A DNA stretch of 64,000 nucleotides from Sulfolobales archaeon. Its GTDB lineage: Archaea; Thermoproteota; Thermoprotei_A; Sulfolobales; AG1. A program made the translations under genes and the position numbers. The stretch covers positions 32,001 to 96,000 of the forward strand of contig JAWBYA010000005.1 in the NCBI GenBank assembly GCA_038867615.1. The letters run 5' to 3'. The notes under the pieces are model-generated. The model ran no database searches. It was not told where the DNA came from and worked only from the letters and a program-made list of their open reading frames with translations. The stretch's first letter is position 1, and every line of letters starts with the position of its first letter. This document shows, one piece after another, positions 1,618 to 51,893 of this stretch.

Positions 1618-1932
1618 CTAGGGTTTCTCCTCAACACCAGTAGATCTTCTAAGCATGTTCCTCAAGAAAGCATCCTGGGGAGCATCTCTATAATGCTCAG
1701 CCTTCTCAGCAAGGATCTCGAGCTCCTCGAGGGTAGCGTAGTCCAGGGGCTCGCCCCTCATACCATCCCTGTTCCACTCGTTAACAAGCCTATCCATGAT
1801 CCTCTCGACATCCTTATCAGAATAGAAGAGAGCTTTAACCCAGCTATTCCTATTCTCCTCAATATTCTCAACAATAATCCTGATAAGATCCTCTCTCCTA
1901 GGCAAACAGTACCATCCAGTATAGTTATACAC
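1618..1932 (-). CDS. Hypothetical protein (true start possibly the TTG before PRRED)
   Basis: Open 104-aa ORF with natural charged composition, co-oriented with trxB. Confidence 0.7.
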   Translation of the reverse strand: MYNYTGWYCLPRREDLIRIIVENIEENRNSWVKALFYSDKDVERIMDRLVNEWNRDGMRGEPLDYATLEELEILAEKAEHYRDAPQDAFLRNMLRRSTGVEEKP

Positions 1933-2213
1933 AAACCCGATTAATATACTCCTAATCCCACCAAAGATCAGCCATATATACCGTGGATCATGGATATATG
2001 CTTGAGCACCACAGATCCTAGAGCAGTGCTCTGCAAAGGAAGTAAGATCTAGAAGAGGTGTGCTGAAGCCCGAGAGAAAAATACAGGATTGGATGTATAG
2101 CTATACCGGGTATACGACCCTTCTGAAGGGTAAGCTAGTAGAATTTTAGGAGATAAGGACAAACAGAGAGATTATTATTGCCTTTAACCATATTTTAGTT
2201 TGGGGAAGATGTT

Positions 2214-2873
2214 TTGCCCATGTTCAGAGAAGTGGGTAGGGATCACCAGCGATATATGGACCACGATATAGCTATGCTTGAGAAGGCTTTGAAAGGAACT
2301 ACAACGGTTGGGCTTGTGACCAAAGAGGCCGTGGTCATGGCGGCTGATAAGAGGGCTACTGCCGGCATGTATATAGCCCACAAGAATGTTAGGAAGATAG
2401 AGCCTATAGATGAGAGATCAGCTCTGACAATATCAGGGCTTGTTGCCGATGCACAGACACTGGCTGATTATCTTAGATATAGAGCCAGGCTCTACTATGT
2501 AATGACAGGAACTCCTATGAGCATCAAGTCCATGGCCAGCCTACTAGCCCTGATCCTCAATAGCTCCAAGTACTTCCCATTCATAGTCCAGCTCCTCCTA
2601 GGGGGTATAGATGATAAGCCCAGGCTATACCAGATAGAGTTCTTTGGAAGCGTTACCGAGGAGAAGTTCGTAGCAACAGGAAGCGGTAGCCCCATAGCCA
2701 TAGGAGTGCTTGAGGCCGGGTATTCCGAGGATCTCGGGGTCGAGCAGGCTGTGAACCTGGCTAGAGAGGCTATAACATCGTCTATAAAGAGGGATGCCTA
2801 TACGGGAGAGGGTATAGATGTGGTGGTTATAACAAAGAATGGTGTGAAGAGCCACTACTTCCCAGTGAAATAG
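2214..2873 (+). CDS. psmB: Proteasome subunit beta
   Basis: Propeptide followed by KG|TTTVG catalytic Thr, AADKRAT, ATGSGS, RDAYTG. Confidence 0.95.
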   Translation: MPMFREVGRDHQRYMDHDIAMLEKALKGTTTVGLVTKEAVVMAADKRATAGMYIAHKNVRKIEPIDERSALTISGLVADAQTLADYLRYRARLYYVMTGTPMSIKSMASLLALILNSSKYFPFIVQLLLGGIDDKPRLYQIEFFGSVTEEKFVATGSGSPIAIGVLEAGYSEDLGVEQAVNLAREAITSSIKRDAYTGEGIDVVVITKNGVKSHYFPVK

Positions 2874-2892
2874 GGGGGTTAACACGTAGAGG

Positions 2893-4842
2893 ATGGTTTT
2901 CGTGAGAGATAGACTTCTCGACGAGATAAGAAAGGTGATTATGGAGAACATACCTCCCGAGGCCGAGATGCGCAGAGTCGAGTTCGAAGGACCCTATCTA
3001 GTGATCTATGTGAGAAACCCCGGGTTTCTTAAGTCAGAGACATCTGCTATAAAGAACATAGCCAAGATCCTTAGAAAAAGGATCATTGTCAAGGTAGATC
3101 CCCAGGCTAGGAAGAAACCCCAGGAGGCTAGATCAAAGATCCTCGAGCTAGTACCAAGCGAGGCTGGCGTGGGTGAGAAGGATATAGAGTTCGACGAGGT
3201 TTTGGGAGAAGTAGTTATAAAGGCTGCAAAGCCAGGGCTCGTTATAGGGGCTGAGGGGGAGAATCTAAAGAGAATCCTCGTAGAGACTGGGTGGAGACCA
3301 AGGGTTGTTAGAAAACCCCCCATAAAGTCAGGGCTTCTAGAGGGGATAATAAACTATATGATGAATGAGAGCGACTATAGGTTGAAATTCCTTAGAAGGG
3401 CTAGCGAGAAGATACACGTAGATCCTCTCTTCAAAAGCGATACCGTTAGAATCACAGCCCTCGGAGGCTTCATGGAGGTTGGTAGATCCGCTATCCTTCT
3501 CGAAACACCTAATAGCAAGATCCTCCTGGACTTCGGCCTAAACCCAGGGATTAACACGCCGCCAAACATGTATCCCAGGATAGATATGCTCAACATAGCC
3601 CCCGAAGAGATAGATGCGGTTGTTGTAACACACGCCCACGTGGATCACTGTGGATTAGTACCATTCCTCTTCAAATACGGCTACGACGGTCCTGTATATA
3701 CCACAGAGGCTACCAGAGATCTCATGGCCCTCATGCAGCTAGATATACTCGATGTTGCGAGGAGAGAGGGAAACCCGATCCCGTTCACACAGAGGGAGGT
3801 TCAGAAGATGGTGCTCCACACAATACCCCTGAAGTACGGGGATACGACTGATATAGCCCCCGATGTTAAGATAACTCTCTATAATGCTGGCCATATACTG
3901 GGCTCTGCTATGGTTCACATATATGCTGGAAACCCAGCCGGGGGCGGGATCAATATACTCTATAGCGGTGATATAAAGTTCCAGAGGACAAGGCTTCTCG
4001 AGAGGGCTAGTGTTGAGGAGATCCCTAGGGTTGATATCCTTATCCTGGAGAGTACCTATGGTGCAACAGATCTCCCGCCAAGGAACGAGGCTGAGGAGAA
4101 GCTCATCGAGATCATTAAAAAGACTGTTGAGAGAAAAGGAAAGGTCCTGATCCCCACGCTAAGCGTTGGGAGGGCTCAGGAGATAATGCTCGTCCTAAGA
4201 TCTGCTATGATGGAGAAGAAGCTCGACGAGATCCCAGTATATATAGAGGGGATGATAGACGAGGTGACAGCAATACACACAGCCTACCCAGAGCTCCTAT
4301 CGAGAGAAACCTTCGCTCTATTTAAGAGCGGTGAGAATCCCTTCAGCTACACAACCTTCAAGAGGGTTGAGGATAGAAGGGCTAGGAGCGATATTATAGA
4401 CGCTCCCGAGAGCAGTGTGATCATGGCTACAAGCGGTATGCTCACAGGAGGCCCGGCTGTTGAGTACTTCAAACTCCTAGCAGGGGATCCTAGGAACACT
4501 ATGGTGTTTGTAAACTACCAGGTTAAGGGAACACTGGGGAGAAGAATCAAGGATGGGGAGAAGGAGATACAGCTCCATGAAGAGGATGGGAGAATAGTTA
4601 CCGTGAAGGTTAACATGGAGATCCAGAGCGTCGAGGGCTTCTCAGGACACAGCGATAGAAAACAGCTAGTGAGATTCGTTGAAAGCCTCCCAACAATTCC
4701 GAAAAAAATAATACTGAATCACGGAGAACCATCAGCCATAGCCTCGCTCGCTAAAGAGCTAGGCAAAAGCAAGGATATCAGGGTGAGAACAGCCGATATA
4801 ATAATGCCCAATGTCCTAGACACCCTAACCTTCAAACCATAG
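2893..4842 (+). CDS. fttA: Beta-CASP ribonuclease aCPSF1 / transcription termination factor FttA
   Basis: N-terminal KH domains, THAHVDH MBL motif, AGHILGSA, ESTYG, GFSGHSD, NHGE; follows psmB as in the conserved archaeal pairing. Confidence 0.93.
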   Translation: MVFVRDRLLDEIRKVIMENIPPEAEMRRVEFEGPYLVIYVRNPGFLKSETSAIKNIAKILRKRIIVKVDPQARKKPQEARSKILELVPSEAGVGEKDIEFDEVLGEVVIKAAKPGLVIGAEGENLKRILVETGWRPRVVRKPPIKSGLLEGIINYMMNESDYRLKFLRRASEKIHVDPLFKSDTVRITALGGFMEVGRSAILLETPNSKILLDFGLNPGINTPPNMYPRIDMLNIAPEEIDAVVVTHAHVDHCGLVPFLFKYGYDGPVYTTEATRDLMALMQLDILDVARREGNPIPFTQREVQKMVLHTIPLKYGDTTDIAPDVKITLYNAGHILGSAMVHIYAGNPAGGGINILYSGDIKFQRTRLLERASVEEIPRVDILILESTYGATDLPPRNEAEEKLIEIIKKTVERKGKVLIPTLSVGRAQEIMLVLRSAMMEKKLDEIPVYIEGMIDEVTAIHTAYPELLSRETFALFKSGENPFSYTTFKRVEDRRARSDIIDAPESSVIMATSGMLTGGPAVEYFKLLAGDPRNTMVFVNYQVKGTLGRRIKDGEKEIQLHEEDGRIVTVKVNMEIQSVEGFSGHSDRKQLVRFVESLPTIPKKIILNHGEPSAIASLAKELGKSKDIRVRTADIIMPNVLDTLTFKP

Positions 4843-18758: not shown

Positions 18759-20042
18759 TCAAATGCTATATAGCTCGGAACCCTGGATCACATGATCCGA
18801 GGCTCTTCTCGTCTTATACCAGTCAACCCTTCTCATAAAGATCGCTAGCACGGCTGCTACTGACATTAGGATCCAGTATAGGGGTATTGCGAGGGCGTGG
18901 ACAGCAAGATCGATCCCTCTCCTAGGGCCTTTATTGTTTGCAACGGCTAGCATTATAACAAGCAATGGTAGCAAGCCCTCTATGAATAATACTACAAGCA
19001 TGGATCCATAGGGGGCTAGTGTGATGGTGATACCATTATTAGCACTAGACCCGCTGTCATGGGTAGAGCCTCTGGCTATATAGGACATGGTCATCAGGAT
19101 CGTTATTACCGATAGGACCAGCGATGTCACAGCAACTATGGGTCCTAGATAGCCTATCGATGCTTTAAGCCTTCTCCTACCCCCATAGATCAGGATCCTG
19201 GCTAAACACTCAAGATGACCCCTATACCATCGTATCCTCTGCCTAATATGACTCGTAATATCTAGAGGTGCGGCCTCCTCTACATAGGAGTCTAGCAACC
19301 CGATCCTATATCCCTTCTCGAAAAGAATGAGGGAGAGGTAGGCATCCTCCGCGAGCTTCTCCGGAAAACCGCCAAGCCTCATCAAAACCTCCTTCTTTAT
19401 ATAGAGCCCCTCTCCGCTCAGGGGTACGTGGAAGCCAGCCTTTCTCAGAGCATTTATCACCAAGTCGAACCATATAACGGTATCTATATAGATCATCTTG
19501 CCCAGCACCCCCTCACCATATCTATAAACCCTAACACCCAGAGCATCGTAACCCCTACTGCTCATGAGCCTCACAGCCTCCTCAAGCTGGTTCTCATCAA
19601 AAGAATCATCGGCGTCATATACAGCTATTATGCTACCGGAAACCCTATCTATAACCTGGTTGAGAGCCCTAGCCTTAGAGCTCCTCCCACCCTTAACAAC
19701 ATAGATCCTAGCATCAACCCCCCTGCTTCTTAGAAACTCAAGGGCTTTTTCGGCACCCCTCAGGGTCTCTTGATCCTCTTCCTCTACTATGAGCCACACA
19801 TCATATAGATCCTTGGAGTATCTCTGCCTAGCAATGCTTGAAACAGTCCTCATAATAGATCCTGGTTTCTCCATGTATAGAGGGATAAGGATAGACACCC
19901 TATGCTGCACACTGTTTTTCTCACCACTAGTCCGGGATGGTTTCTCGTAAGAGCCACGCTCCCTGCTAGCGCTATATATAGCCACCCATATTAGGGCGCT
20001 GAAGCCTAGGTAAGTTGAGAGAAGCACCATTTCAAGTGACAT
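18759..20042 (-). CDS. Glycosyltransferase family 2, processive/membrane type
   Basis: KARALN, YDAD, AED, QRIRW motif, C-terminal TM helices. Confidence 0.88.
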   Translation of the reverse strand: MSLEMVLLSTYLGFSALIWVAIYSASRERGSYEKPSRTSGEKNSVQHRVSILIPLYMEKPGSIMRTVSSIARQRYSKDLYDVWLIVEEEDQETLRGAEKALEFLRSRGVDARIYVVKGGRSSKARALNQVIDRVSGSIIAVYDADDSFDENQLEEAVRLMSSRGYDALGVRVYRYGEGVLGKMIYIDTVIWFDLVINALRKAGFHVPLSGEGLYIKKEVLMRLGGFPEKLAEDAYLSLILFEKGYRIGLLDSYVEEAAPLDITSHIRQRIRWYRGHLECLARILIYGGRRRLKASIGYLGPIVAVTSLVLSVITILMTMSYIARGSTHDSGSSANNGITITLAPYGSMLVVLFIEGLLPLLVIMLAVANNKGPRRGIDLAVHALAIPLYWILMSVAAVLAIFMRRVDWYKTRRASDHVIQGSELYSI

Positions 20043-20141
20043 GTATCATTACCAATGATGATTCGTGAGAGGAGATATATTTCATAAACCCAGGGCTGGG
20101 TAGCGAATAGTATAGATGCTGTTTATAAACCAGAGTAAGAT

Positions 20142-20435
20142 CTATAGGAGCTTCTCTATAGCTTCTTTGAGGTTCTGGGCGTAGGTTTTAGCCTCAATAA
20201 GGATCTCTATGAGCACGTCAACAGGATCTCTCGTCCCGTCTGTTATGATAACAACCCTTGGTTGCGATGTTTGGGGATGATCCACTATATATGCGGCATA
20301 GCTCACATATGGTTTCCTAATAGCCAGCTTGGATATTAGGTTAGGTATTCCATGCTGATCCCCCGTTAGTGTGAATATAAGCTCTCTATCGCTTCTCTTC
20401 TCAATCTTGATCCTCGGGATCAGGTCTATAGACAT
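20142..20435 (-). CDS. rpoL: DNA-directed RNA polymerase subunit Rpo11 (RpoL)
   Basis: 97 aa; GDQHGIPNL (divergent GEDHTLGNL) and VSYAAYIVDHP motifs. Confidence 0.75.
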   Translation of the reverse strand: MSIDLIPRIKIEKRSDRELIFTLTGDQHGIPNLISKLAIRKPYVSYAAYIVDHPQTSQPRVVIITDGTRDPVDVLIEILIEAKTYAQNLKEAIEKLL

Positions 20436-20496
20436 TGCCCCTTCCTATAAAGCTAGCGTAACCAGCTATATATTTATAAAGCAGACCCCGGATCCT

Positions 20497-21114
20497 TTAT
20501 CTAATGATCTGGAGCACTATTGATATAGCTATGAGGGCCACCGCTATATAGAGTATCCTTAACGATGGATCACCAATATAGATACTAACCTCCCTCGGGA
20601 TCTTCTTTACAGCCTGCCTCTGAACAACCTTCTGAGGCTCTTGATAGGATAGCTCGAGCTCCGAGTCCCTGTCAAGGAAAACCTGTTTCTGAACAGCAAT
20701 ACTCCCCTCTATAGATAGCCTCACAATATACTCCCCCTCGGCTAGGTTGAAAGCGATCTCCTTGGGATTAACCCTCTCCTTCTCGGAGTAGTTGCTACCT
20801 ACCACCTCTACTACGGCATCTTTAGGGATATTCTTACCCTTCACCTTGACAGAAAGCCTATAGATCCTAGGCTCTCTGAGCCATCTCGGTTCAACTAGAT
20901 CGTGGCCCAGAACCCTCTTTCCATAGCTGTTTATCTCATCAACAAGATCCCTATAGATCTTATAGATCTTCATCTTGGTCTCGTAAGGAGCGCCAGATCT
21001 TAGAACTATAACGTTATAGCTACCCTTAAGCATTTCAAAGGACTCTACCACCACCTCCTCGCTACACATACCGTCAGAAGATCCGCAGGATCTCCACATA
21101 CTATCCCTCAGCAT
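20497..21114 (-). CDS. Hypothetical protein with C-terminal membrane anchor
   Basis: 205-aa ORF ending in a hydrophobic helix. Confidence 0.65.
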   Translation of the reverse strand: MLRDSMWRSCGSSDGMCSEEVVVESFEMLKGSYNVIVLRSGAPYETKMKIYKIYRDLVDEINSYGKRVLGHDLVEPRWLREPRIYRLSVKVKGKNIPKDAVVEVVGSNYSEKERVNPKEIAFNLAEGEYIVRLSIEGSIAVQKQVFLDRDSELELSYQEPQKVVQRQAVKKIPREVSIYIGDPSLRILYIAVALIAISIVLQIIR

Positions 21115-21539
21115 AGCCAGCGTGTTAGCAACATCCCTCTCATAGTTATCGCTAGGATCTAGAATGCTTATATATTTATTAATAATCCTGGATATTATGT
21201 AGTGAAGATCAACCTTCCTGCTTATACCGGCAACCCCAAAATAATATGGGATAGAAATTCTTTTATATTAATAGCACCGCAAGGCATAACCAATATAGAA
21301 AGATCCCGTGTTCTTTACCCCGATCCCCCAGCACAGAGATCCTTTCAATTTTTAGCTCTAAGTTGACCTGGGCTAGGTTTATGAACCGTACTTGCTCTCT
21401 CTTCTAATCTAACCAATGTATCTTGCCAGGATACTCGCGGGGGTGTGTAACTGATAGAAGATCTTTAAAGGCACGCTATATCACATTGCATGATAAAACA
21501 GAGAAGTTTATAAGCTTGCTAGCGTCATAAATCGATAGT

Positions 21540-24500
21540 ATGAAGAATCTTACAAGCTTTTTAGGTCTCATATTTGAAGGAGCCTTTAAGATCGGTTTTA
21601 TGGAGAACAAGCTCCCGAAGGACGAGTATGAGAGGTTTGAGAAGGGCGTTTTCGAGTATATAAAGAGCAGGGCAGGTGATCGTGACCTTGAAGAGATCCT
21701 TAAAGACATAGAGGAAAGCTTTCGGTATTCCATGTATAGAGAGCCTCCGAAGAATCTTAGCGAGCTAAGCAGGCTTTTGAAGCAAAGATATCAGGAAGAG
21801 CAGACTAACGGTACTATAAAGAGAGAGTGGAAAGAGATCTATACCAAACTTATCTTCCTCATAGGATATTGGGGAGGTCTTTTCTATGGCAGGAAGTTCA
21901 AAGACGCAGAGGTGAAGAAATACCATATGGGGGAAGAGTCGGGTTCTGATATAATATGGGGTAATGCTGATCTCGTTTTCATAGAAAAGAATACTCTCCA
22001 CGTGGTGGATTTCAAGCTGGCTGGAGCGATCAGTTCTCTAAGAAGAATGCTCTTGGAAAGAGAAACAGTAATCCCTGTACCGACCTATGGTATCCCAGTA
22101 AACCTATCACTCGGAGAACTGGAGTTCTCGGGGTTTGTTGAAAAACTCCTCTTAGTAGAAGAAAGGCTTAGAGAGACCGAGGATGTATTTATAGAGACAA
22201 AAGGGCTCTTACAAACAACATGCTATGCTGTGGATTTCCTCTGCTCCGAGGAGAGAGATATAGAGGAAGTGAGCCTAGAGCTCTTATACCCAGTCTCCGA
22301 GCCGCTTAACCTGCGGTTTTCCGTAGGCGATAGAGGGAAGCTTAAAGACTATCTAGCGAGGATAAAGGATCTATATAGAGATATAAGGGAGAAAGAAAGT
22401 CTCTACGACAGGATCAGCTACGCAAGCTTATATAGAAAGGATAGGCTGAGAGCCGATATTGAGCGGATTGTGAAGGAAATGAGGAAAAGAGAATCAGAGA
22501 GGATCTCTATAAAAGCGGGCGATATAGCACAGGTTAGAGCTGACGTGAAGAAAAGACTCGAGGACTTTGTGAAGAGGGAGGATGATTGCAAGGCTATAGC
22601 CCTGCTCCACTCCGCGGGAAGTGGAAAGACGAGGAGCGCGAGGGAACTGATCCTCGACTTAGGCGGAAAGCATATAGTTCTTTACATGACAACACGCCTA
22701 CGCATCCTGGAGAGAGAATATAGGGTGTTAGAAAAACATTCTGAAGAGACCGAAAAGAGAATAGCGATCGTATACAAGAGAAGAGTAGGCAAAAGCGGGG
22801 GGTTCGTAAAGCACAAGGGCAAGGCTTACGAAGAGGTGGGAGGCAAGCAAGAAGGCATACTTCTATCCACAGTGAAAGAGATAGTAAGGCTTGCCCAAGA
22901 GGGTGAATACGATCAAATATGGGCCTTTACAACCATACAAGCAGTGGTTGAAACAGCCTTTGGCAAAACTTCAAACCACCTTGAAGAGCTCATGAGACCC
23001 ACCATTAAGGAAAGATACAACATCCATATAATCCTCGACGAGTTCCTCGGCTATAAAAACGGCCTCTACGCTGTAATAGAGATGTTAGATTTCGCCAGAA
23101 GATTCAAAGAAGGCGGTGGACGGATAAGCCTTTATCTTTTCGATGCCAACGGCTACTCCCCAGTTATTATGAAGAGACTGCTTGATGAGTACGAGAAATT
23201 CGGAGTATTACCAGAGGCCGTAGTGCTGGGTGAATACCAAGAGGAGCTGAAAACCGTCTACAAAGACATCCCCCTCGAAATATTCGCTAAACATGGCTAT
23301 CCGTCTGGACAGCTCTATCTATATAAGAAGTTCCTGAGGATCTCTAAAGAGAAGGAAAAACCAGAGAAGCTCGCCCAATATATACTAGATACTTTTAAAG
23401 ATAAGAAAAGCACCGCGTTTGCTTTTATACAGGATAAGGAGCTCATAGCAGAGCTATCCCAGATCCTTACAAAGCATAATTTATCCACATTGATAGCAAC
23501 AGCAAGTTCGGAGAAAAGCCAGAAGCAGATAAACGAAGGAGAAGAAGATGTGATACTAGGAACATCGTCTATCTCGAGAGGACTTGATTTTAGCAGGAGC
23601 CACAAGCCGGTGGACTATATATATGTGTTTATCCAGAGCTGGGGAATAGAGGGCAACCTGGTAGAGATACTACAATCCATATCGAGGGCTAGGGGGGATG
23701 AGGAGACCGAGAAGAGGGCAAAGCACGTGCATCTAGTCTATCTCATAAGCGATGAACACACAGACTATAGAGTGGATAACATACTGGCCACGTTAGAGAA
23801 TCCAGATAAGGATATCGTGAGACTTGTATACGAGAAAGAACATCTAGAGAGCTTTCTAGATCTCGACGATATTGTGACCAGGATAATAGAGCAGTTCGTC
23901 TCAAAACCTTCTGACAAGGTTCTCGTACCTATCTCGACACAGCATAGGAGTATATATAGGCCTAACAAGATCTCTGACTTTGAGGGTGTAATGACCTTCC
24001 TTGAAGATGTATATGCTATGGAGAAGAATGATAGAGATATATATAGACTTTTAGAAGAGCTAGGAGGCTCTATCTACACCTACTCCACACTACCCGAGCT
24101 GGGAAGACTCAATAGATTTGACTATTACCACCCCTATATACTTATCGACGAGCACCCAATATACATGGCTATGGTTGAAAAGGAAAAGAGACATGAGATA
24201 AAAAAACTCTTGAGGAAAGTAAGCAATACGCTCAAAAAACATAATAGAGAAAGAACGGAGAACGTGGAGAAGTTCATAGAAGATCTAATAACCCCCGAAG
24301 AGAGTAAAGCCCCTGTACTCATCCCCATATACTCTCTCGTCCTGGTAAAAAACTGGCTAGGACGAGATGAGGGAATAAGTTTCAAGATAAGGAAGAAAGT
24401 TGGAAGGGGACATGCAGAAGTCCTGGGAGGCCATTTAGAGCCGAGAACCCGGTGCTTTGTCGGTGACCGTATAGAGTACGCCTGCATACCCCTGGAAGAG

Positions 24501-24581
24501 GACTACCCATATAGAGAGATCCTTAGCGGGAGGTTCGCCAAATTCCCCGTAAGATTTATAAAGAGCCTCCTGGAGGCGTAG
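21540..24581 (+). CDS. PD-(D/E)XK (RecB/Cas4-like) nuclease fused to an SF2 helicase
   Basis: GNAD144LV...VVD157FK159 and QTTCY nuclease motifs; Walker A HSAGSGK363T; Walker B ILD500EF; motif V GTSSISRGLDF; motif VI QSISRARG. Confidence 0.8.
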   Translation: MKNLTSFLGLIFEGAFKIGFMENKLPKDEYERFEKGVFEYIKSRAGDRDLEEILKDIEESFRYSMYREPPKNLSELSRLLKQRYQEEQTNGTIKREWKEIYTKLIFLIGYWGGLFYGRKFKDAEVKKYHMGEESGSDIIWGNADLVFIEKNTLHVVDFKLAGAISSLRRMLLERETVIPVPTYGIPVNLSLGELEFSGFVEKLLLVEERLRETEDVFIETKGLLQTTCYAVDFLCSEERDIEEVSLELLYPVSEPLNLRFSVGDRGKLKDYLARIKDLYRDIREKESLYDRISYASLYRKDRLRADIERIVKEMRKRESERISIKAGDIAQVRADVKKRLEDFVKREDDCKAIALLHSAGSGKTRSARELILDLGGKHIVLYMTTRLRILEREYRVLEKHSEETEKRIAIVYKRRVGKSGGFVKHKGKAYEEVGGKQEGILLSTVKEIVRLAQEGEYDQIWAFTTIQAVVETAFGKTSNHLEELMRPTIKERYNIHIILDEFLGYKNGLYAVIEMLDFARRFKEGGGRISLYLFDANGYSPVIMKRLLDEYEKFGVLPEAVVLGEYQEELKTVYKDIPLEIFAKHGYPSGQLYLYKKFLRISKEKEKPEKLAQYILDTFKDKKSTAFAFIQDKELIAELSQILTKHNLSTLIATASSEKSQKQINEGEEDVILGTSSISRGLDFSRSHKPVDYIYVFIQSWGIEGNLVEILQSISRARGDEETEKRAKHVHLVYLISDEHTDYRVDNILATLENPDKDIVRLVYEKEHLESFLDLDDIVTRIIEQFVSKPSDKVLVPISTQHRSIYRPNKISDFEGVMTFLEDVYAMEKNDRDIYRLLEELGGSIYTYSTLPELGRLNRFDYYHPYILIDEHPIYMAMVEKEKRHEIKKLLRKVSNTLKKHNRERTENVEKFIEDLITPEESKAPVLIPIYSLVLVKNWLGRDEGISFKIRKKVGRGHAEVLGGHLEPRTRCFVGDRIEYACIPLEEDYPYREILSGRFAKFPVRFIKSLLEA

Positions 24582-24584
24582 AAC

Positions 24585-26930
24585 ATGTACGAAAGCAGGT
24601 TCGTAGAGAAGGATGAGAGGCTCGATCTGTTCGCAAGAGGGGAGCATGTGGGAAGTGACTTTATCTATGCTGGTATGTTCCACAACTACCAGGACGGATT
24701 CCTACAGAGCCTTGCTAACTATTTCTATAGACTCCTGAAGGGAGAAGATCCCGATAGGGTAGGAAACGAGCTGAGAGAATTCCTCTCAAATAGCAGAAAA
24801 GCTATTGGCGGGAATGCCATATACCGTAAAAAAGAAGTCTTAGAGCTAGGAGGCCCTTTCTCTATCTATAAAGGCGATAGAGAAGCAGGTTTCCCGAGAT
24901 ATAAAGAGAACTCGAGCTTCAAGATCTTCGAGCTTAAGGTAGGCACACCATCCGATATGGATAAAAAATCCGGGCTCGTGTTTCTAAAGATAAAGGGCTA
25001 TGAAGATAAGAAGCTCGACCAGAAGGTAGTGTTATCTGCAAGAAGAGACCTTCTAGACGAATGGATCCGCCTCACAGATGATAATAATGTGAGGAGCTAC
25101 CTAGAAGAGGTCAGGGAGGTATATAAGATCCTAGAGGGGTTCCCACTACGAAGAAACGAGCCTCTATCGAAACTTGCTTTTTACCTCTTCCCAATAGAGC
25201 TAAGCAGTTTTGAAAACATCACTATTGTCTCAAAGGTAAGCCTCTATAAGAGGAGGATAGAAACTAGGACAGGTCTATGGGAGGATATAATGAAAAACCT
25301 GAGTAAAGAAGATAGAAAAGATCTCGAATTCTCGCTGGAAAAGCATGGAAAAACACTGGATCATCTGAAACGCCTTCTAGATGAAGCACTATTACCGAAA
25401 AATCTCGACCTTCTTCGCAAAGACTGGAAAAAAGTTATAAAGAAATTCCTGAGAGGCGAAAGTAACAAGATCGAAGCGGTGTTCGTAGGCAAAGCTCCCC
25501 AGGAGGATAAGCACCCTCAACTCTCCTTTGGAAGATATAGAGTCCCTAGCGCTGATCTAGAGCTCTCAGTGTTTGTTGAGAAGGATTTCCAGATGGGGAG
25601 TTATGATAGTGATGGTATAGCGAAGATGCTGAGCACCGCTTTCTCAGGCTTCAAGTTCCTTGGAAATGTGAGGGTGAGGATAAACACAGAGAAAATAAAT
25701 AACCTAGAGTCGTTATTCGGCGGCGAGGATCTCTTTAGGCTTATAAGAGGAGATCACGCGCCAAAGAATATTAATAGGCTAGAGAATACCGACTCTATTA
25801 ACCTCATACATTCCCTTTGTTACTTCTCAACAAAGATCCTTAGCCTGGCGGGGAAGATAAAAGAGGAAGAACATAGGGGGAGATTCCATGGAGCACTCTT
25901 GATCCTCAATACCGAGTTGAAAGAGGAAGAGAGATATCTTCTCTGGGATGCTGTGAGGCTAATATATAGCTACTTTGGAGTCCCGATCCAGACCGTGACA
26001 AAAAGATCTCTTAGAGCTATGCTAGATAACGAAAAACGTAACGCTGTGATCAAGAATCTCCTTATAAGCCTCTACAAAGACACCAAAACCCTGGAGATCC
26101 ATTTTAGCAACCTCAGACTCCCGAAAGACGTCGTGGTCTATGCAGTTATAGAGAAACCGTCTTCCAGCTTTTTCTACCGGAAAGGCGAGAAAAGCGATAG
26201 AGCAAGACACTATCTCTATGAGATCTATAGGATAGAGATAAAGGATAAATACGCGACAGTGGAACTCGAGAAAAAAATCTTCGAACTATGGGGGGCAGAA
26301 TACTCTGAAATAGAGATGTGGCTGAAGCGCAATATGGAGCACAAGAACACCAGGTTCTGCTTAATAACAGCCTTGAGAGACTCTAGGCTTTGCAAACTAT
26401 ACGATGAGTTGGTGAACGCGGAATCCAAGGATAGGTTTTTAGTGATAAGATATGATGAGCTAAAAACAGCATATTTCTCTGAAAAGACTGAGAAGGATTG
26501 CTATATCATATACACAGAGGAGTTGGAGAAGCTTATAGAGAGACTGGGGATAAAGCTACAAGGTAGTGAAAGAAAAGCAGTCCTGGCCATAAAGCCCGCC
26601 CATATAAAGGCTATAGAAGACGTGGATGAGGAGCTATACCACCCATCCCTCCAGCTCTTTTTCACCGAAAGAATAGGCTGGGAGAGAGACGAGACATACT
26701 CGGAGAGAAAGGATCTCTTTATCTTTACAGTGCTCGCCCTCTCTATGTTTGAGAGCGAATCTTTCCAAACACCATATAGCAAGCTCGACATATGGGAAAA
26801 GACAAGGGACATCCATCTAGCTATACAGAGAGATCATAAAGAGTATATCTTCGCCCTAATACCAACGCTATACGAGATGATAAACTTCATAAAAGATATG
26901 CCAAGACCCCCGACAGAGCCGAGAAGCTAG
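24585..26930 (+). CDS. Divergent long prokaryotic Argonaute/PIWI-like protein
   Basis: P311QLSFG (L2 'PxLxF'), MID-like G465VPIQTV...N491LLISLYK498, PIWI-like strand VVVYAVIE523 and CLITALR598D599SR, C-terminal helix plus TP pattern; 781 aa; GGAGG SD at 24572-24576, 3 nt after the helicase stop. Confidence 0.62.
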   Translation: MYESRFVEKDERLDLFARGEHVGSDFIYAGMFHNYQDGFLQSLANYFYRLLKGEDPDRVGNELREFLSNSRKAIGGNAIYRKKEVLELGGPFSIYKGDREAGFPRYKENSSFKIFELKVGTPSDMDKKSGLVFLKIKGYEDKKLDQKVVLSARRDLLDEWIRLTDDNNVRSYLEEVREVYKILEGFPLRRNEPLSKLAFYLFPIELSSFENITIVSKVSLYKRRIETRTGLWEDIMKNLSKEDRKDLEFSLEKHGKTLDHLKRLLDEALLPKNLDLLRKDWKKVIKKFLRGESNKIEAVFVGKAPQEDKHPQLSFGRYRVPSADLELSVFVEKDFQMGSYDSDGIAKMLSTAFSGFKFLGNVRVRINTEKINNLESLFGGEDLFRLIRGDHAPKNINRLENTDSINLIHSLCYFSTKILSLAGKIKEEEHRGRFHGALLILNTELKEEERYLLWDAVRLIYSYFGVPIQTVTKRSLRAMLDNEKRNAVIKNLLISLYKDTKTLEIHFSNLRLPKDVVVYAVIEKPSSSFFYRKGEKSDRARHYLYEIYRIEIKDKYATVELEKKIFELWGAEYSEIEMWLKRNMEHKNTRFCLITALRDSRLCKLYDELVNAESKDRFLVIRYDELKTAYFSEKTEKDCYIIYTEELEKLIERLGIKLQGSERKAVLAIKPAHIKAIEDVDEELYHPSLQLFFTERIGWERDETYSERKDLFIFTVLALSMFESESFQTPYSKLDIWEKTRDIHLAIQRDHKEYIFALIPTLYEMINFIKDMPRPPTEPRS

Positions 26931-27149
26931 ATCATGAGGCGTGAACGGAATCAACCAACACTAGCGGGAACATGAACCTGTCTAACATATCCTATCCTAG
27001 TTCTAGCATATTGTGAGACTTCTAAGCACTCACAACGGTTATACGCTTATGTCTCGCCCGTTCCAGCGATCTATAGCCCATACAGCCCCCATATAGACCC
27101 ATGGAGAAATAGTCTAGAGCAACATAGGATGCCACGCTACATTGCTCTC

Positions 27150-28589
27150 CTAACCCTCCTTGGGCTTGGCGGAGATGTCGATAAGTCCTCCTACGATATC
27201 TGCACCGATTCTCAGTGTTCCTTTAGGGCTCTTCACCCTGGCTAGAGCTTCATCTATATCGATCCTAGCAAGCCCTCCTGTTCTTGAGATACTGCTCTCA
27301 ACCTTGATCGTTTTAGGAACTCTTGCCTTCAGATCCAGTATTCCTCCGGAGACATCGAGGTCTATCGATGATTCTCCCTCGAACTCGCCGTATGATAGAT
27401 CGAGCACTATTCTGCCACCACTGATCTCTAGCTCAACGCTAGATGCCCTCATATCTGTCGATGATATATTGGCAACCGAGCCCGTGAGATGACATGCCAT
27501 TCTCTTAACCCCGCTGAGGCTTATATCGATATACCCTCCACTCGCATCTAGATCCAGTGCTTCCAACCCGGTCTTAGGGGCTTCTATGACTGCCTCGCAT
27601 CCCGAGAGATCTATGCTTAGCTCTCCATCATCTAGATCTAGATCGTATTCGCACTTACTCCTCCACCCACCCCTCTCGTATATAGTCACCGCGGCATCGC
27701 TTCTATCGCTCGGGCTAATCCTAGCTATGCCCCCGCTCATATCTATCGATATGCTTTTAACGTTGGGGAAAGACTCTTTCAGGAGTAGAGCGCCCCGCTG
27801 CCCGAGATCCTTATCCTCAATAGATCTTAGTATCGGTGCTAGGCTCTTCATAACGTTGGAGACAGCGTTAGAGACTATGCTGGAGATAAATGCGCCTAGA
27901 GAGCCTAGAAAGGGGCTTAGTATAGCAGCATGCCCCCCACCCTCCTTTCTATCCTTGCTAGTGATCCAGAACACATCTCTACTCTTAAGCTGGGCTATCG
28001 GCAAGATCTTATCGGGTACTCTTAACGTGAACACGTCTCTTATACTCTCCACAACCTCGTCAAACAACTCTGGCTCAACATCATCGCCTACTTTAACCTC
28101 GAATACATCGGTTATGATTAGCCTCCTCCCCTGAACCCTGATCCTCTCAAGCATCTCTCTATTCACGGTGAGCGAGAACATATCGCTTATAATCACAGGT
28201 GTACCAGGCGTACCAGGTGTAACCCGATCCCGGGGCTCGGCAGGCTTAGCCACGCCCGGGGTTTCAACTATCCTTTCAGAAGACCTCTTCTCCTCATCCC
28301 GCTTTATACTCTGCTTACCAGCACCTTTTATAATACTATAGGCCCTCCATCCAAGCTCTGTTAGCTCGTAAACACCTTTCTCGTTCTTCCTTATAAAACC
28401 AGCCATTCTTCTTAGATGAAACGTCATTGTACCAGTATCGCTCACCCCAGCATCATCCATAAGCTCTGTAAAGCTCCTGGGACCCTTCTCAGCTATGCTC
28501 TCAATTATCTTCCTCCTAATCCTGTGACTCGCTACCAGAAAGATCCTATCGATATCCTCATCTCCACTATACTCCTCCTCACCCACCAC
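27150..28589 (-). CDS. ArsR-type winged-helix regulator fused to a DUF4097/adhesin-like beta-repeat domain
   Basis: ASHRIRRKII...SFTELM...TMTFHLRRM...YELTELG wHTH; C-terminal repeated hxhDhSGG units. Confidence 0.75.
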   Translation of the reverse strand: MVGEEEYSGDEDIDRIFLVASHRIRRKIIESIAEKGPRSFTELMDDAGVSDTGTMTFHLRRMAGFIRKNEKGVYELTELGWRAYSIIKGAGKQSIKRDEEKRSSERIVETPGVAKPAEPRDRVTPGTPGTPVIISDMFSLTVNREMLERIRVQGRRLIITDVFEVKVGDDVEPELFDEVVESIRDVFTLRVPDKILPIAQLKSRDVFWITSKDRKEGGGHAAILSPFLGSLGAFISSIVSNAVSNVMKSLAPILRSIEDKDLGQRGALLLKESFPNVKSISIDMSGGIARISPSDRSDAAVTIYERGGWRSKCEYDLDLDDGELSIDLSGCEAVIEAPKTGLEALDLDASGGYIDISLSGVKRMACHLTGSVANISSTDMRASSVELEISGGRIVLDLSYGEFEGESSIDLDVSGGILDLKARVPKTIKVESSISRTGGLARIDIDEALARVKSPKGTLRIGADIVGGLIDISAKPKEG

Positions 28590-28612
28590 GATCCCCTAAT
28601 CATCATGAGCGA

Positions 28613-28705
28613 CTCGTCATGAATATACCTTTTGACGAGACCCCTCATCAAAAATCCCGGAGAGTTTGACGAGACCACCCAACCTATGGGTTTATAGGTG
28701 ACGAG
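28613..28705. promoter_or_regulatory. Candidate operator array (TGACGAG repeats) in a divergent promoter
   Basis: CTCGTCA 28613-28619 / TGACGAG 28633-28639 inverted pair; CTCATCA 28644-28650 / TGACGAG 28667-28673; a further TGACGAG at 28699-28705. Confidence 0.5.
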
Positions 28706-28729
28706 CCTCTCCACACAACAACGGGGGCT

Positions 28730-29635
28730 GTGTTGGGATCCGGGGATGCTGTTATAGCCGAGGGTCTTGCGAAACAATACCCCGGCGGTGTTTGGGGGGC
28801 TAAGAGTGTGAGCTTCTCCTCAAACTATGGTGAACTGATCGTTATCCTAGGCCCCAACGGGGCTGGGAAGACTACCACTATAAACATGCTCACAACACTG
28901 ATCAAGCCCAGCAGTGGTAGGGGTCTTGTTGGTGGATATGATATCGTGGGTGAGCGTGATAAGGTGAGGAGGATCGTGGCCCTCATGCCACAAGACGCTA
29001 GTATGAGTAGTGATTGGACACCCTATGAGGCTGTCAAATGGTATCTCGTCGCAAGAGGCTTCAGTATCAGTGATGCTGGGAGGGAGGCTAGGATCTGGCT
29101 TGAAGAGATGGATCTATACGATGCTAGGAATAGACTCGGATGGTGGCTCAGTGGTGGTCAGAGGAAAAGGGTTCTCGCAGCTATGGTGCTCGCAACAAGA
29201 GCCCCAGTGATCTTTCTCGACGAGCCTACAAGTGGTGTTGATGTTGAGGGCAAGTATAAGGTTTGGAGCGCGATTAGAAGGGCCTGTAGAGATGCTAGGG
29301 CTGTGATATATACTACCCATGATATGAGGGAGGCTGAGCTTGTTGCTGATAAGGTTGTCATGATCGGTGAGGGTAGAACTATAGTTATTGGAAAACCAAA
29401 AGATCTAGTAGAGGGACTACCATTTAAATATAAGATTGTCTTGAGGGGTAAGGCTAACCATCCAGAGGGCTCGGTTGCAGAGCTGAGTGTGGGGGATATC
29501 ATGATAACATATTATAGGGATAGGAGCGATGCTATAAGAGCCCTGGATTCGATAGAGACTAGCGCCTCTATAGAGCCTGTATCGCTGGAGGATGCTTATC
29601 TATACTATGTAAAGATGAGGGGTGGGGGTAGATGA
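28730..29635 (+). CDS. ABC transporter ATP-binding protein (DrrA-like exporter)
   Basis: GPNGAGKTT, LSGGQ, FLDEPT, TTH. Confidence 0.92.
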   Translation: MLGSGDAVIAEGLAKQYPGGVWGAKSVSFSSNYGELIVILGPNGAGKTTTINMLTTLIKPSSGRGLVGGYDIVGERDKVRRIVALMPQDASMSSDWTPYEAVKWYLVARGFSISDAGREARIWLEEMDLYDARNRLGWWLSGGQRKRVLAAMVLATRAPVIFLDEPTSGVDVEGKYKVWSAIRRACRDARAVIYTTHDMREAELVADKVVMIGEGRTIVIGKPKDLVEGLPFKYKIVLRGKANHPEGSVAELSVGDIMITYYRDRSDAIRALDSIETSASIEPVSLEDAYLYYVKMRGGGR

Positions 29636-46713: not shown

Positions 46714-49700
46714 CTATATTATCTCTTCCTCAGCCCTCCTCTCCATATATCTCCTCGCTATCTTCATCAGCACTATCACCGTAGCAACCATGCCAATAGC
46801 TACATATACCATAATGAACCTTGATAACATGTTTAACAGTGTTGGCTGTAGCTTTAATACTAAGTTCCGCTCCCCGACGGGTAGTGGCTCTTCAAGAGTA
46901 TTATAGCCTGCTGCTACCACTGTAACCCTGTATGATCCGTATGGTATACTGATCTCCGCCTTACCATCATTACCGGTCTTCCATGTAAACTCTACCGCCG
47001 GGTTCTCAAGGCTTTTTATAGTTATGCCCGCACCATTAATAGGCTGCCCGGTATCGTCTATAACGCTTATGGTGTAGCTCATGACCCTTCTATTAAGCGA
47101 TACCTCAATCCTACCGCCACCCACAACTATATCAACCTCCTTTTCTGTCGCAGTATATATAGATCCCTGCCCAGCAGGTTCAACAACTATTCTCGCATTT
47201 CCATGTGGTAGTAAGACAGTGGTAGTAGCACCTCCCGGCGATAATTCCTCGCTATACATGAGCCTGTCGCCCATGTATACCAGCACTCTGACCGGGGATA
47301 CAAGATCGCCGCTTATAGGATCTATTAGAGCTATGGTTACCTGATACCTAGTCCTATTTATACTTACCACAAGATCTTGCCTATCGATGTTTAGAACGCC
47401 TCTATAGCCTATATAGAGGCTCTGGTTAAAGGGCTCTATTAAGATAAGATAGCGGTCGAAGAATATCCTGGGTATTGTTATTGTACCATTACTTGATGTA
47501 ATGCCGGAGAAGATCCTTATGTTGGAAATCATGTTGATTATGGATACACCAGCATTGGGGACAGGAACGCCGAACTCATCTACTATCATAAGATTTACCT
47601 GGATCTCCCTCGGTCTTAAAAGAACCTCTAAGTTATTGATAGAACCAGGCTCGGTGATGCCGATAAGCGCCTCTCCCTCATGGAAGAAGGGTGATGCCGC
47701 GATAACTCTATAGATGCCGAGGGGAAGAACTACAGGGGAGCCAGGCTTGATAGTACCAAGATCTCCTCTCAAAAGAGGACCCTCCGCAAACAGTTTTATC
47801 GAGATCGACTCTTCAGGGGGCTTTGTAACATCAGCCCCAAGAACCCCAACACTTATGTTAAGCATAGCGGTGTTAACCCTGAATATTATGTTTATGTCAC
47901 CACTCCTACTTACAGTGAACCTGGCTCTAGCAAGCTCTATTCCATCGCCTATCAATAATGCATAGTGCTCCCCGCCCTCTAGCATAAGATCTAGAGGATC
48001 CTCAACAGTCGTTGTATTGATCTTTCCATCTATTGACAACATAAGCCCTGGCGGAACCATTGCTAGCATCGCTGCATACGGGCTCTCAGGGTTATAGTAG
48101 TAGAGGAAAAGCCTAACCCTGTATAGAATTGATCCTGGAAGATCAATTGTGCTTCCACTAACCACCAGACTGCTAACATACTCTATAGCGCCGCTCAGAA
48201 CCCTAGCTATATAGGATCCTCTGGGGAGGTAGAGAATGGAGGATCCGTTTATTATCAAGCCTCTAGCAACGAGACTATCATTTTCATATATTTCTATATA
48301 GCCATCAGTAACACCTATTGAGTAGTTGGAAACAACGCCCGTAACAAATACCCTTGGATAGATCCTCACAAGCTCTATAGAGCACCTACTAAACGCTATA
48401 TCCTGGAGCGCGTTGATAACATATACCCTCGAGGGCGTAGCTAGATAACCTCTCCCAAACCCCGCCGAAGTCCACATACCAGGGCCTACCGGAACTCCGA
48501 GGTAGTCATCACCCCTAGTACACTCAATAGATGTTGACTGATCAACCCTGTTTATATGGAGCTTTCCAGAACTATCTATAGCGATCAAAACCCCATCTCT
48601 ATAGTCAGCAGCAACTATAGATCCCGGGATATCTATCCCCCAGAACGCCACATGAAAACCCCTTTGGTCGTTATAGAGAAAATAGTAAGCCCTACCACTA
48701 TCAAGGATCACTGAGACACCCCGCCCATTATTATCATACCCCACCCACACCCCACTTGAAGATGGGGTGGGTAGTATATACCAAACATAATCCTCATACC
48801 TATTCTGGATCTTCACAGGTACGGGGTTGAGATTCTGATCGAAGTATATAAAAGCCGCCACAAATAGATCTTCACGATAACCAACAATGATTCCTAGGTA
48901 TGTCCAGGGAACCCCGGCAACATTGGGTTTGATCAGCTTAGCATAGACCGGCTTAATGTCAAGCAGAAGCGGCTTCCCGAATCTTATGGATTCGGGTGCG
49001 CAGGTTGCATCGAGAAGCACGGCATATGTTGGTACAGCGCTCTTAACGATCTGTGTAACCTCTCCTTGACCGCTTCTCATGATAACCATATACTCTATCG
49101 GTGTCTTTTCAAGCATATATTGATTCAACTCTATAGCTATGCTCTCTGTCTCGTACTCGGGATGGGTTATGTTAACAATATACAGAGTACTGCTCGGATC
49201 TATCAATGGGAGGCTAAGAACAGCGCTCCCGTTCTGATCCGAGATGGATTGAAAAACAAGACCTTTCGTCGCCTTGGGCTTTGCCAGGCTTGCAGTCACA
49301 ACAGCATCAGAGATCGGGTAACCTGTTTCATTATATATAACAAGGGCGACGTCAAGCGATGGTGGAGTATATATTGCGAGAAGAAGCGACGGATCAACTC
49401 TCCTAACAGCCCCATAGACAACTTCAGTACTAGATATATCTAGAATAGCACTTCTCATAAAACTATAGACAGCAGTGCTCTCACGAGGCCCAATCTCAGC
49501 CCAGCCACCCCTAGTAACCCTGTAGAGATATAGATAGCCTTGGCTGTCAAGAAGAGCTAAGATTGGATTGCAGAAAATACCAACCCCTATCGATAGTCTC
49601 TTAACAGGAAACCTCGACGCCTGTATATAGCTCGCCCTCCCCTCCCACGTATTATATACAACAGCCTCCCCCCTATCGGTGCCAACAGCTATATAGCTTC

Positions 49701-50034: not shown

Positions 50035-50063
50035 CCAGGCCTCCTATGCTTTTCTTAACAGAT

Positions 50064-50094
50064 GTTTTTATATATAGTTTTTTATATATAAAAC
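50064..50094. promoter_or_regulatory. AT-rich inverted repeat / TATA-like elements in the divergent promoter of the pilus locus
   Basis: TTTTATATATA (50066-76) and TATATATAAAA (50083-93) between divergent starts at 50034 and 50180. Confidence 0.4.
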
Positions 50095-50179
50095 GAATCT
50101 GGATAACAACCATGGCGATAGAGATCCCAATATATCCCAACAGGCTACTACTTTATATATACCCCTGGAATATTATTTA

Positions 50180-51835: not shown

Positions 51836-51893
51836 AACTAATACTAATAAATCTCGATTAGAACTTCAGCATAGATACCTCGAGAGGAAAGCC

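Follow-up and report, generated by a model that had tools for sequence, protein, structure and literature searches.

An apparently horizontally acquired two-gene cassette of a divergent protein with a predicted Argonaute fold and a predicted nuclease-helicase in a Sulfolobales archaeon

The handover from an Argonaute that does not slice to a helicase-nuclease, as in DdmDE and ApsAB, is a recently recognized design that is so far known from mesophilic bacteria. The account of these and related systems given here follows the available parts of the sources cited. DdmDE is a plasmid-defense module of Vibrio cholerae, in which DdmE is a prokaryotic Argonaute (pAgo) of the "long-C" type and DdmD a helicase-nuclease (bioRxiv 10.1101/2024.05.10.593530). 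DdmE has no DEDX tetrad and does not slice; it uses 5'-phosphorylated DNA guides of 12-14 nucleotides (nt) and recruits DdmD, which harbors an N-terminal DinG/XPD-like helicase and a C-terminal PD-(D/E)xK nuclease (bioRxiv 10.1101/2024.05.10.593530). The guide pocket of DdmE is formed by Y363, K405, Q376, and E401, and its residues K674 and E678 hold a Mg ion on the guide 5' phosphate and are not catalytic (bioRxiv 10.1101/2024.05.10.593530). The antiplasmid system ApsAB from Escherichia coli is a second such pair: ApsA is a protein of about 1,450 amino acids (aa) with a C-terminal nuclease, and ApsB, which BLAST and profile searches leave unnamed, is Argonaute-like, keeps the canonical Y-x3-K...QG...K motif, and is reported to be devoid of a PIWI RNase H fold (PMC11096173). 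The pPIWI-RE systems, described as bacterial, combine three genes encoding a restriction endonuclease (REase), a DinG helicase, and the pPIWI-RE protein (PMC3702460). Proteins joining a PD-(D/E)XK domain to a helicase can also be found in pAgo operons (Ryazansky 2018). The present work deals with a pair of adjacent genes, encoding an Argonaute-like protein (P0001) and its putative nuclease-helicase partner (P0002), in a stretch of 64,000 nt from a Sulfolobales archaeon (assembly GCA_038867615.1, contig JAWBYA010000005.1, positions 32,001 to 96,000 of the forward strand), hereafter the window. No paper on the P0001 family was found in a literature search; members might be listed in the supplements to Ryazansky 2018 and to the ApsAB paper.

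With a probability of roughly 0.55, the pair is a horizontally acquired cassette encoding a DdmDE/ApsAB-like guide-directed system, in which a non-slicing Argonaute is served by a partner of different architecture. In such a system, P0001 would anchor the 5' end of a short nucleic-acid guide in a MID pocket that is conserved but non-canonical, formed by the aromatic pair Y451/W454 together with Q469, T470, N491, K490, K498, and K501. Most likely without slicing, it would pair with complementary foreign DNA and would then recruit or license P0002, whose predicted RecB/Cas4-like PD-(D/E)xK nuclease and superfamily 2 (SF2) helicase would unwind and degrade the target. The logic would be the same as that of DdmDE, where it is experimental, and of ApsAB, where it is proposed, with the nuclease placed at the N-terminus and a helicase that is not DinG/XPD-like. 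The role of the cassette is probably guide-directed defense against foreign DNA.

Both genes are found on the plus strand. P0001 (24585..26930) is encoded by an intact open reading frame (ORF) of 781 aa, directly downstream of the 1013-aa ORF of P0002 (21540..24581). The stop codon of P0002 ends at 24581 and the ATG of P0001 begins 3 nt further on. A GGAGG (24572..24576, plus strand) is read 8 nt ahead of this ATG and, together with the 3-nt gap, suggests a coupled translation of the two genes.

The Argonaute likeness of P0001, first claimed in an earlier note made from the sequence, is borne out at the level of the fold and not by sequence profiles. The AlphaFold2 model, built on a 27-sequence alignment of the family, has a mean pLDDT of 84.3 and a pTM of 0.85. 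Foldseek comparison of this model with the PDB gave 169 matches at E<=1e-3, the best being RsAgo (E 1.8e-9), and 41 of the 43 matches listed are titled as Argonaute/PIWI proteins or as complexes holding one. Among these are RsAgo, AaAgo, KmAgo, TtAgo, PfAgo, AfPiwi, human Ago2, and Siwi/Hili, as well as the short pAgos of SPARTA, SPARSA, and SPARDA. Two rows bear other titles: 4kpy_A is called just "DNA binding protein", and 7kpv_D is one chain of the Mediator kinase module from yeast, the Med13 subunit of which is PIWI-like according to Burroughs 2013 (PMC3702460, available part). The TM-scores amount to 0.26-0.32 by query length and, for the short pAgos, to 0.40-0.45 by target length, low values which are deemed to fit a multi-domain protein of very low identity (8-14%) to its matches; being below 0.5, they place the assignment at the level of the fold and not of close similarity. 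In the ESM Atlas structure search, the first row is a cluster with Piwi in 88% of its members (TM 0.46/0.51).

Sequence profiles gave no such signal. No match to Pfam or NCBIfam was obtained for P0001 at E<=1, nor for its MID-PIWI part against Pfam at E<=10, Piwi (PF02171) included; phmmer against PDB chains returned nothing at E<=10, and a PDB profile search with the 27-sequence family alignment returned no Argonaute. In the genome that holds the window (94% complete), a search with the Piwi model was negative. The only PADLOC match to P0001, to DrmMII (E 8e-4, 16 bits), was treated as a chance match. The N-terminal 300 aa have no Pfam match even at E<=10, in agreement with the earlier statement that they show no recognizable motif, and, in line with the suggestion that profile annotation might call the protein hypothetical, a relative is named "hypothetical protein" in NCBI. 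In the model, residues 225-289 (25257..25451, plus strand), at the place of the PAZ domain in long Argonautes, form four helices (H225-238, H241-253, H258-269, and H271-289) and no PAZ-like beta-barrel is predicted there; the segment would thus be a helical substitute for PAZ. On the strength of the model, an Argonaute-superfamily fold, MID followed by a PIWI RNase H fold, is accepted for P0001, with no named sub-family assigned. The layout is best explained as that of a long-type, very divergent Argonaute, with a predicted N-terminal lobe, helical PAZ substitute, MID, and PIWI.

Regarding the family, a word-index search recovered eight relatives of P0001 (best identity 53%), and searching all cluster representatives at 50% identity yielded 37 at E<=1e-3. 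When the word index was searched again, now with the 27-sequence profile, the same eight proteins came back, and thus no bridge to an annotated family. The word-index protein search listed the locus' own P0002 but not its own P0001, for which the best match was 53% identical; the ESM Atlas holds an identical P0001 sequence. Conservation was counted in the 27-sequence alignment, some columns of which are covered by 25 or 26 sequences. Nine columns are invariant (E332, Y451, W454, P467, Q469, K490, N491, S495, and K501), and columns conserved at 90% or above include T470, I494, K498, E523, S526, Y548, F692, E764, F103, and R105. Since eight of the nine invariant columns, all but E332, fall within residues 451-501, i.e., in the MID pocket, guide 5'-end binding would be the most strongly conserved feature, and we read 5'-end anchoring as the main selected function of P0001.

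The MID-like domain, with its putative guide 5'-end pocket, spans residues ~401-508 (25785..26108, plus strand), as drawn from these columns and from hhalign to pAgo MID domains. When the family was aligned with TtAgo plus eight archaeal pAgos, only residues 455-499 matched, to TtAgo 419-457 (E 0.0022, probability 13%), pairing R458 with K422, Q469 with Q433, N491 with N449, and D499 with K457, K498 being one residue off; against TtAgo alone nothing was obtained (probability 0.1%). The pairing of W454 with R418 is an extrapolation, one residue outside this block; the TtAgo residue numbers agree with the TtAgo sequence. The canonical pAgo 5'-end motif is YKQTNK (PMC6299218, available part). In the P0001 family, the first position is W in 27/27 and the second R in 14, S in 8, and N in 3 members, while Q469, T470 (26/27), and N491 are kept and the final K is out of register by one (K498, 26/27). 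Y451, an invariant aromatic residue, is found three residues upstream of W454; K490 and K501 are likewise invariant, and D499 is D in 21/27. In the MID-OH group, which binds 5'-OH ends, it is a preceding aromatic residue that takes over base stacking (PMC6299218, available part).

The retained Q, T, N, and K would favor 5'-phosphate binding, perhaps via a metal held by D499, and, as judged from the alignment, the unusual element of the predicted pocket is the invariant Y451/W454 pair. The strings quoted in the earlier note were all found at their residues (G465-V-P-I-Q469, N491-L-x5-K498, W454-D-A-V-R458, K498-D-T-K501, V521-I-E523, and R598-D-S600). Its altered guide pocket is upheld by the W in place of Y and the R, S, or N in place of K, but not at the Q, T, N, and K positions, which are kept, and the MID equivalences behind it have the hhalign probability of 13% mentioned above. 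As to the unusual guide 5'-end preference that it deduced, the Y451/W454 pair is unusual indeed and an altered base or 5'-end specificity is possible, but the kept residues favor a 5' phosphate.

A PIWI-like RNase H-fold domain is predicted at residues ~515-769 (26127..26891, plus strand) from the order of elements in the AlphaFold2 model, which fits the PIWI layout: a strand (502-508), β1 (515-525), β2 (543-553), β3 (556-567), αA (575-584), β4 (589-595), and αB (601-609). Catalytic residues were placed by this strand order. E523, present in 26/26, stands near the C-terminal end of β1, at the place of the first catalytic Asp, 25 residues after the pocket Lys K498 (21 in TtAgo). The glutamate finger would fall in the loop 568-574, where column 572 is acidic in 15/25 and R or K in the closest relatives. 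The second Asp would be expected at the end of β4, i.e., at T595/A596, and column 596 holds A, P, T, or S; D599 is four residues past β4, and its column holds D in 10, E in 7, K in 3, and N in 2 members. By the P-x-P...Y-A-(D/H) register, the fourth position would be D735 or W737, with D in 11 and S in 7 members at column 735 and W in 14 at column 737. Only E523 is therefore invariant among the candidate catalytic positions as placed by strand order, and the conserved DEDX tetrad of slicing (long-A type) Argonautes is not seen in the family. Other acidic residues are conserved, namely E725 (acidic in 25/25), E764 (25/25), and E546 (acidic in 21/26). E764, 17 residues from the C-terminus, may be a counterpart of the K674/E678 pair of DdmE, which we take to lie near the C-terminus of DdmE.

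The "degenerate" catalytic tetrad previously proposed stands insofar as the family has no conserved DEDX, but is overstated with regard to the invariant E523 and the highly conserved E725, E764, and E546. That VIE523 takes the place of GxD is consistent with the position of E523 near the end of the first PIWI strand, an equivalence drawn from the strand order of the model. Reading R598-D-S600 as the RDG motif is doubtful and was not confirmed, because D599 is past the end of its strand (589-595) and because A596, not D599, is opposite TtAgo D546 in an hhalign path of low confidence (low mact, cropped domains), which was not relied on. The absence of a conserved DEDX together with an intact partner nuclease favors a non-slicing role, so that P0001 is most likely non-slicing. 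The proposal of a non-slicing, partner-dependent pAgo is thereby the best-supported reading, the co-encoded partner having conserved nuclease and helicase motifs and standing next to the Argonaute-like gene in 9/9 informative loci.

Regarding this partner, the AlphaFold2 model of P0002 (pLDDT 83.6, pTM 0.83) has, as top Foldseek matches listed, the SF2 helicases Vasa/DDX3X, BRR2, MrfA, a chain of a type I-F2 CRISPR interference complex, BLM/RECQL5, Hel308, Mfd, and UvrB; XPD, DinG, and DdmD have no entry among the matches listed. A PDB profile search gave DEAD-box RecA2 matches only. Of the 86 relatives from the word-index search, those that bear a name are called helicases from Aquificaceae, Hydrogenobacter, Thermocrinis, Sulfurihydrogenibium, WOR-3, Micrarchaeaceae, Thermofilaceae, and Bathyarchaeia. 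The SF2 helicase core spans residues ~345-737 (22572..23750, plus strand), with motifs I, II, V, and VI invariant in 27/27. In the Walker A segment 357-364, G360, G362, K363, and T364 are present in 27/27 and residue 361 is S in 24 and G in 3; D500-E501, T465/Q467, T675-S676/R680-G681/D683, and Q712/R716/R718-G719 are likewise found in 27/27. Pfam finds Helicase_C in 27/27 and ResIII in 9/27 members. The single invariant Cys is C972, which argues that P0002 has no Fe-S Cys cluster.

Nucleases of the RecB/Cas4 type are recognized by a D, a (D/E)xK, and a QxxxY on an alpha-beta-beta-beta-alpha core. In P0002, the predicted nuclease domain of this type (residues ~95-236; 21822..22247, plus strand) displays conserved motifs, E132 in 26/27 and D144, D157-x-K159, and Q225-x3-Y229 in 27/27 members. 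In the model, D144 precedes the strand 145-149, D157-x-K159 is at the end of the strand 152-158, and Q225/Y229 are on the helix 218-236. The Pfam model PDDEXK_1 reaches E 0.09 on P0002, below cut-off, and matches none of the 27 members when these are scanned at full length; in the ESM Atlas, PDDEXK_1-bearing clusters have feature scores of 0.86-0.87, and both signals are weak leads. From motifs and model, the N-terminal region is predicted to be a RecB/Cas4-like PD-(D/E)xK nuclease. A predicted complex of P0001 residues 192-781 with P0002 residues 606-1013 scored 0.00 in both runs, which has no bearing on the conclusion.

The two genes form an accessory module that moves horizontally. The analysis recovered ten related loci, each of them titled as an Aquificaceae or Pampinifervens metagenome-assembled genome (MAG), and the closest relatives of P0001 (49-53% identity) are found in Aquificaceae. 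A P0002 homologue ends 2-4 nt ahead of the Argonaute-like gene in nine of the ten (9/9 informative), the tenth starting inside the Argonaute-like gene and hence not being informative for the upstream neighbor. The flanking genes vary from one related locus to another: LepA, pyrophosphatase, ThiF, AAA_15 plus PIN, or a PLD-SNF2 helicase. Two of these neighborhoods are of the defense type, an AAA_15/AAA_21 ATPase and a PIN-domain gene directly upstream of the module in L002 (3254-4890) and a PLD-nuclease/SNF2 helicase fusion near it in L006 (1114-4290). Two contigs of one Aquificaceae MAG (L005 and L007) carry two copies of the module, with Argonaute-like proteins 40% and 39% identical to P0001; the two may be paralogous cassettes of a single genome or the result of a mixed bin.

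In the window, the accessory segment (21263..27149; 5,887 bp) is made up of the operon with 277 bp upstream and 219 bp downstream. In the congeneric genome G303 the site is empty, and the genes on either side of it (97% and 91% identical) are adjacent. By blastn, positions 11-1775 of its locus (L023, G303:C3:28300-32300) correspond to window positions 19500-21262 (94.5%) and positions 1831-4001 to 27150-29328 (92.4%), so that 55 bp in G303 stand against the 5,887 bp of the window. Both flanking genes, on the minus strand, are core genes outside the cassette: a 205-aa ORF without Pfam match (20497-21114), conserved in 12/12 genomes of the same taxonomic family, and, on the other flank, a 479-aa helix-turn-helix/DUF7347 protein (27150-28589). 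The P0001 family is found in 0/5 congeners and in 1/301 sampled genomes of the phylum, namely the window's own genome (G000, query score 6e-295). The GC content of the accessory segment is 0.438, vs 0.466 elsewhere, the third lowest among 118 stretches of 5.4 kb. Neither flanking direct repeats nor a target-site duplication were found at the insertion borders. Relatives are found on both sides of the divide between bacteria and archaea, and the cassette was apparently acquired horizontally by this hot-spring archaeon.

Several observations weigh against a guide-directed, non-slicing defense system of the DdmDE/ApsAB kind. By sequence profiles, no link leads from the P0001 family to DdmE, pAgo, or pPIWI_RE: the Pfam models Piwi (at E<=0.1) and pPIWI_RE (PF13032, PF13111, and PF18157) match 0/27 members, and PADLOC 2.0.0, which presumably contains Ddm models, gives an Argonaute or Ddm match in 0/27, with chance-level matches only. 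The Ddm proteins have no profile match, and neither DdmE nor DdmD is among the Foldseek matches listed (43 rows for P0001), where all TM-scores are below 0.5. No relatives were found in viral contigs (0) or, by tblastn, in plasmids, and the neighbors in the window are housekeeping genes and not a defense island. In addition, the invariant E523 at the first catalytic position, with the highly conserved E546, E725, and E764, would be compatible with a non-canonical slicing site. P0001 could accordingly be a nuclease itself, with a Glu-based site formed by E523 and some of E546, E725, E764, and D599, in which case P0002 would process the cut DNA or make guides. The conservation of these acidic residues on and beyond the first catalytic strand speaks for it, as does the window's own P0001, which is acidic at all four strand-order positions (E523, E572, D599, and D735). 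Such a site is nevertheless unlikely: even close relatives differ without restriction at positions 572, 596/599, and 735/737, where R, K, S, and W also occur, and E764, 17 residues from the C-terminus, may rather be compared with DdmE K674/E678, which serve Mg and 5'-phosphate binding and not catalysis in the available part of the DdmDE preprint.

It can also be hypothesized that the cassette acts in the manner of pPIWI-RE, the PIWI protein sensing RNA-DNA hybrids or R-loops on actively transcribed foreign DNA, with RNA guides or transcripts, and the helicase and restriction-fold nuclease acting thereafter. The order of functions equals that of the triad REase, helicase, and PIWI, the first two being fused here (PMC3702460, available part), and in the ESM Atlas feature search the pPIWI_RE Pfam families are found in 6/30 of the nearest clusters (best score 0.94), a lead only. 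The lack of any match to the three pPIWI_RE models among the 27 members, of DinG or XPD among the Foldseek matches listed for P0002, and of any invariant Cys other than C972 makes this mode of action improbable. Housekeeping neighbors, i.e., RpoL, a glycosyltransferase, and an ABC transporter here and LepA, pyrophosphatase, and ThiF elsewhere, might rather evoke a helper of DNA repair or replication (e.g., in end resection or in resolving replication intermediates) in which P0001 would be a structure-specific DNA binder, and a role of TtAgo in completing DNA replication is mentioned (PMC10269773, available part). The patchy, strain-specific spread (empty site in the congener, 0/5 congeners, 1/301 genomes of the phylum), relatives across the bacteria/archaea divide, and the defense-type neighbors in L002 and L006 render a role outside defense very improbable. 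A bolder version of the guide-directed system would see in P0001 a deep unrecognized Argonaute branch, missed by all current profiles, with a clamp of invariant Tyr and Trp on the 5' nucleotide, and in the cassette a third immune machine of Argonaute plus N-terminal-nuclease SF2 helicase, assembled convergently and independently of DdmDE and ApsAB. This machine would move between bacteria and archaea of hot springs, and its Argonaute might have a novel specificity for the 5' end or base as well as a residual active site based on Glu; as a whole, it is put forward tentatively, as a doubtful extension.

Further features of the locus and of the window concern expression, occurrence, and neighborhood. 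A public protein identical to P0002 (P0047) has 993 aa, implying, from its length and M21, a start 20 codons downstream. In the longer reading, G9, E13, F16, K17, and G19 are invariant in 27/27 relatives, which makes the ATG at 21540 the more likely start of P0002. TTTATAA (21507..21513, plus strand), ~30 nt before this ATG, is a candidate archaeal TATA box read from the letters; a promoter/terminator scan with a sigma-70 model, which does not apply to archaea, gave no enrichment. An Rfam scan of the whole window found tRNA-Leu alone. The DNA of the locus is present in hot-spring and sediment metagenome runs from nine studies, five runs possibly being the source; among the sequencing runs searched, no RNA run holds the locus, which has no bearing on the conclusion. 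The archaeal gene content of the window comprises FttA, Rpb11-type RpoL, DUF1286, and a Pab87 domain, and a glycosyltransferase and an ABC transporter are also found among the neighbors. Further away (46714-53645), the minus strand encodes a 1106-aa protein that has a CarboxypepD_reg/Ig-like domain, beside a T2SSE-type ATPase and a T2SSF-type membrane protein on the plus strand. These genes resemble an assembly locus of the archaeal type IV pilus or archaellum kind, accompanied by a large surface protein.

If the cassette is indeed a guide-directed system of this kind, the design would extend to archaea, and its thermostable proteins would be of use in structural and mechanistic studies. The existence of a thermophilic version that crosses domains and has another partner layout would mean that the design arose or was rebuilt more than once. 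The invariant Tyr/Trp pocket would be a concrete variant of guide 5'-end recognition. The case also demonstrates that censuses of Argonautes by PIWI sequence profiles overlook whole families visible by fold comparison only.

With regard to the described systems, the cassette shares the logic of DdmDE, ApsAB, and pPIWI-RE and departs from them in domain order, helicase type, pocket motif, and profile matches. As in DdmDE, it is an adjacent pair with the helicase-nuclease gene first and the Argonaute-type gene second; the Argonaute has no conserved DEDX and no canonical PAZ, the partner would combine an SF2 helicase with a PD-(D/E)xK nuclease, and a comparable division of labor, i.e., guide-directed recognition followed by processive degradation, would apply. 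Unlike DdmD, with its C-terminal nuclease and DinG/XPD-like helicase, P0002 has its nuclease motifs near the N-terminus (residues 132-229), and its listed Foldseek matches are of the DEAD-box, RecQ, Hel308, MrfA, and Cas3 types. The pocket of P0001 likewise displays Y451/W454, Q469, and K490/K498/K501, whereas that of DdmE is made of Y363, K405, Q376, and E401. The resemblance to ApsAB, known here by description in the available part of its paper, resides in a helicase/nuclease accompanied by an Argonaute-like protein missed by profiles, with a conserved MID-type pocket as key feature; in contrast to ApsB, the P0001 family has W-x3-(R/S/N)...QT...K and a predicted PIWI-type fold. What recalls pPIWI-RE, as far as described in the available part of its source, is a divergent PIWI whose 5'-end pocket is conserved and whose catalytic residues many members have lost, together with the order nuclease, helicase, PIWI. 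However, P0002 fuses nuclease and helicase, its helicase is not DinG-like and shows no Cys-rich Fe-S region, and the P0001 family, found in Aquificota and archaea, has no pPIWI_RE Pfam match. Regarding the pocket, the motif of the classical pAgo MID (YKQTNK) is preserved at Q, T, N, and K, and, as in the MID-OH of MpAgo, an aromatic residue, here Y451, stands ahead of the position that usually stacks (PMC6299218). Unlike the MID variants described in the available part of that source, the stacking position of P0001 is an invariant Trp, and not Y/H/R or a small hydrophobic residue (PMC6299218), so that by the rule given there the predicted pocket would be a non-canonical MID* of a kind not listed in that part.

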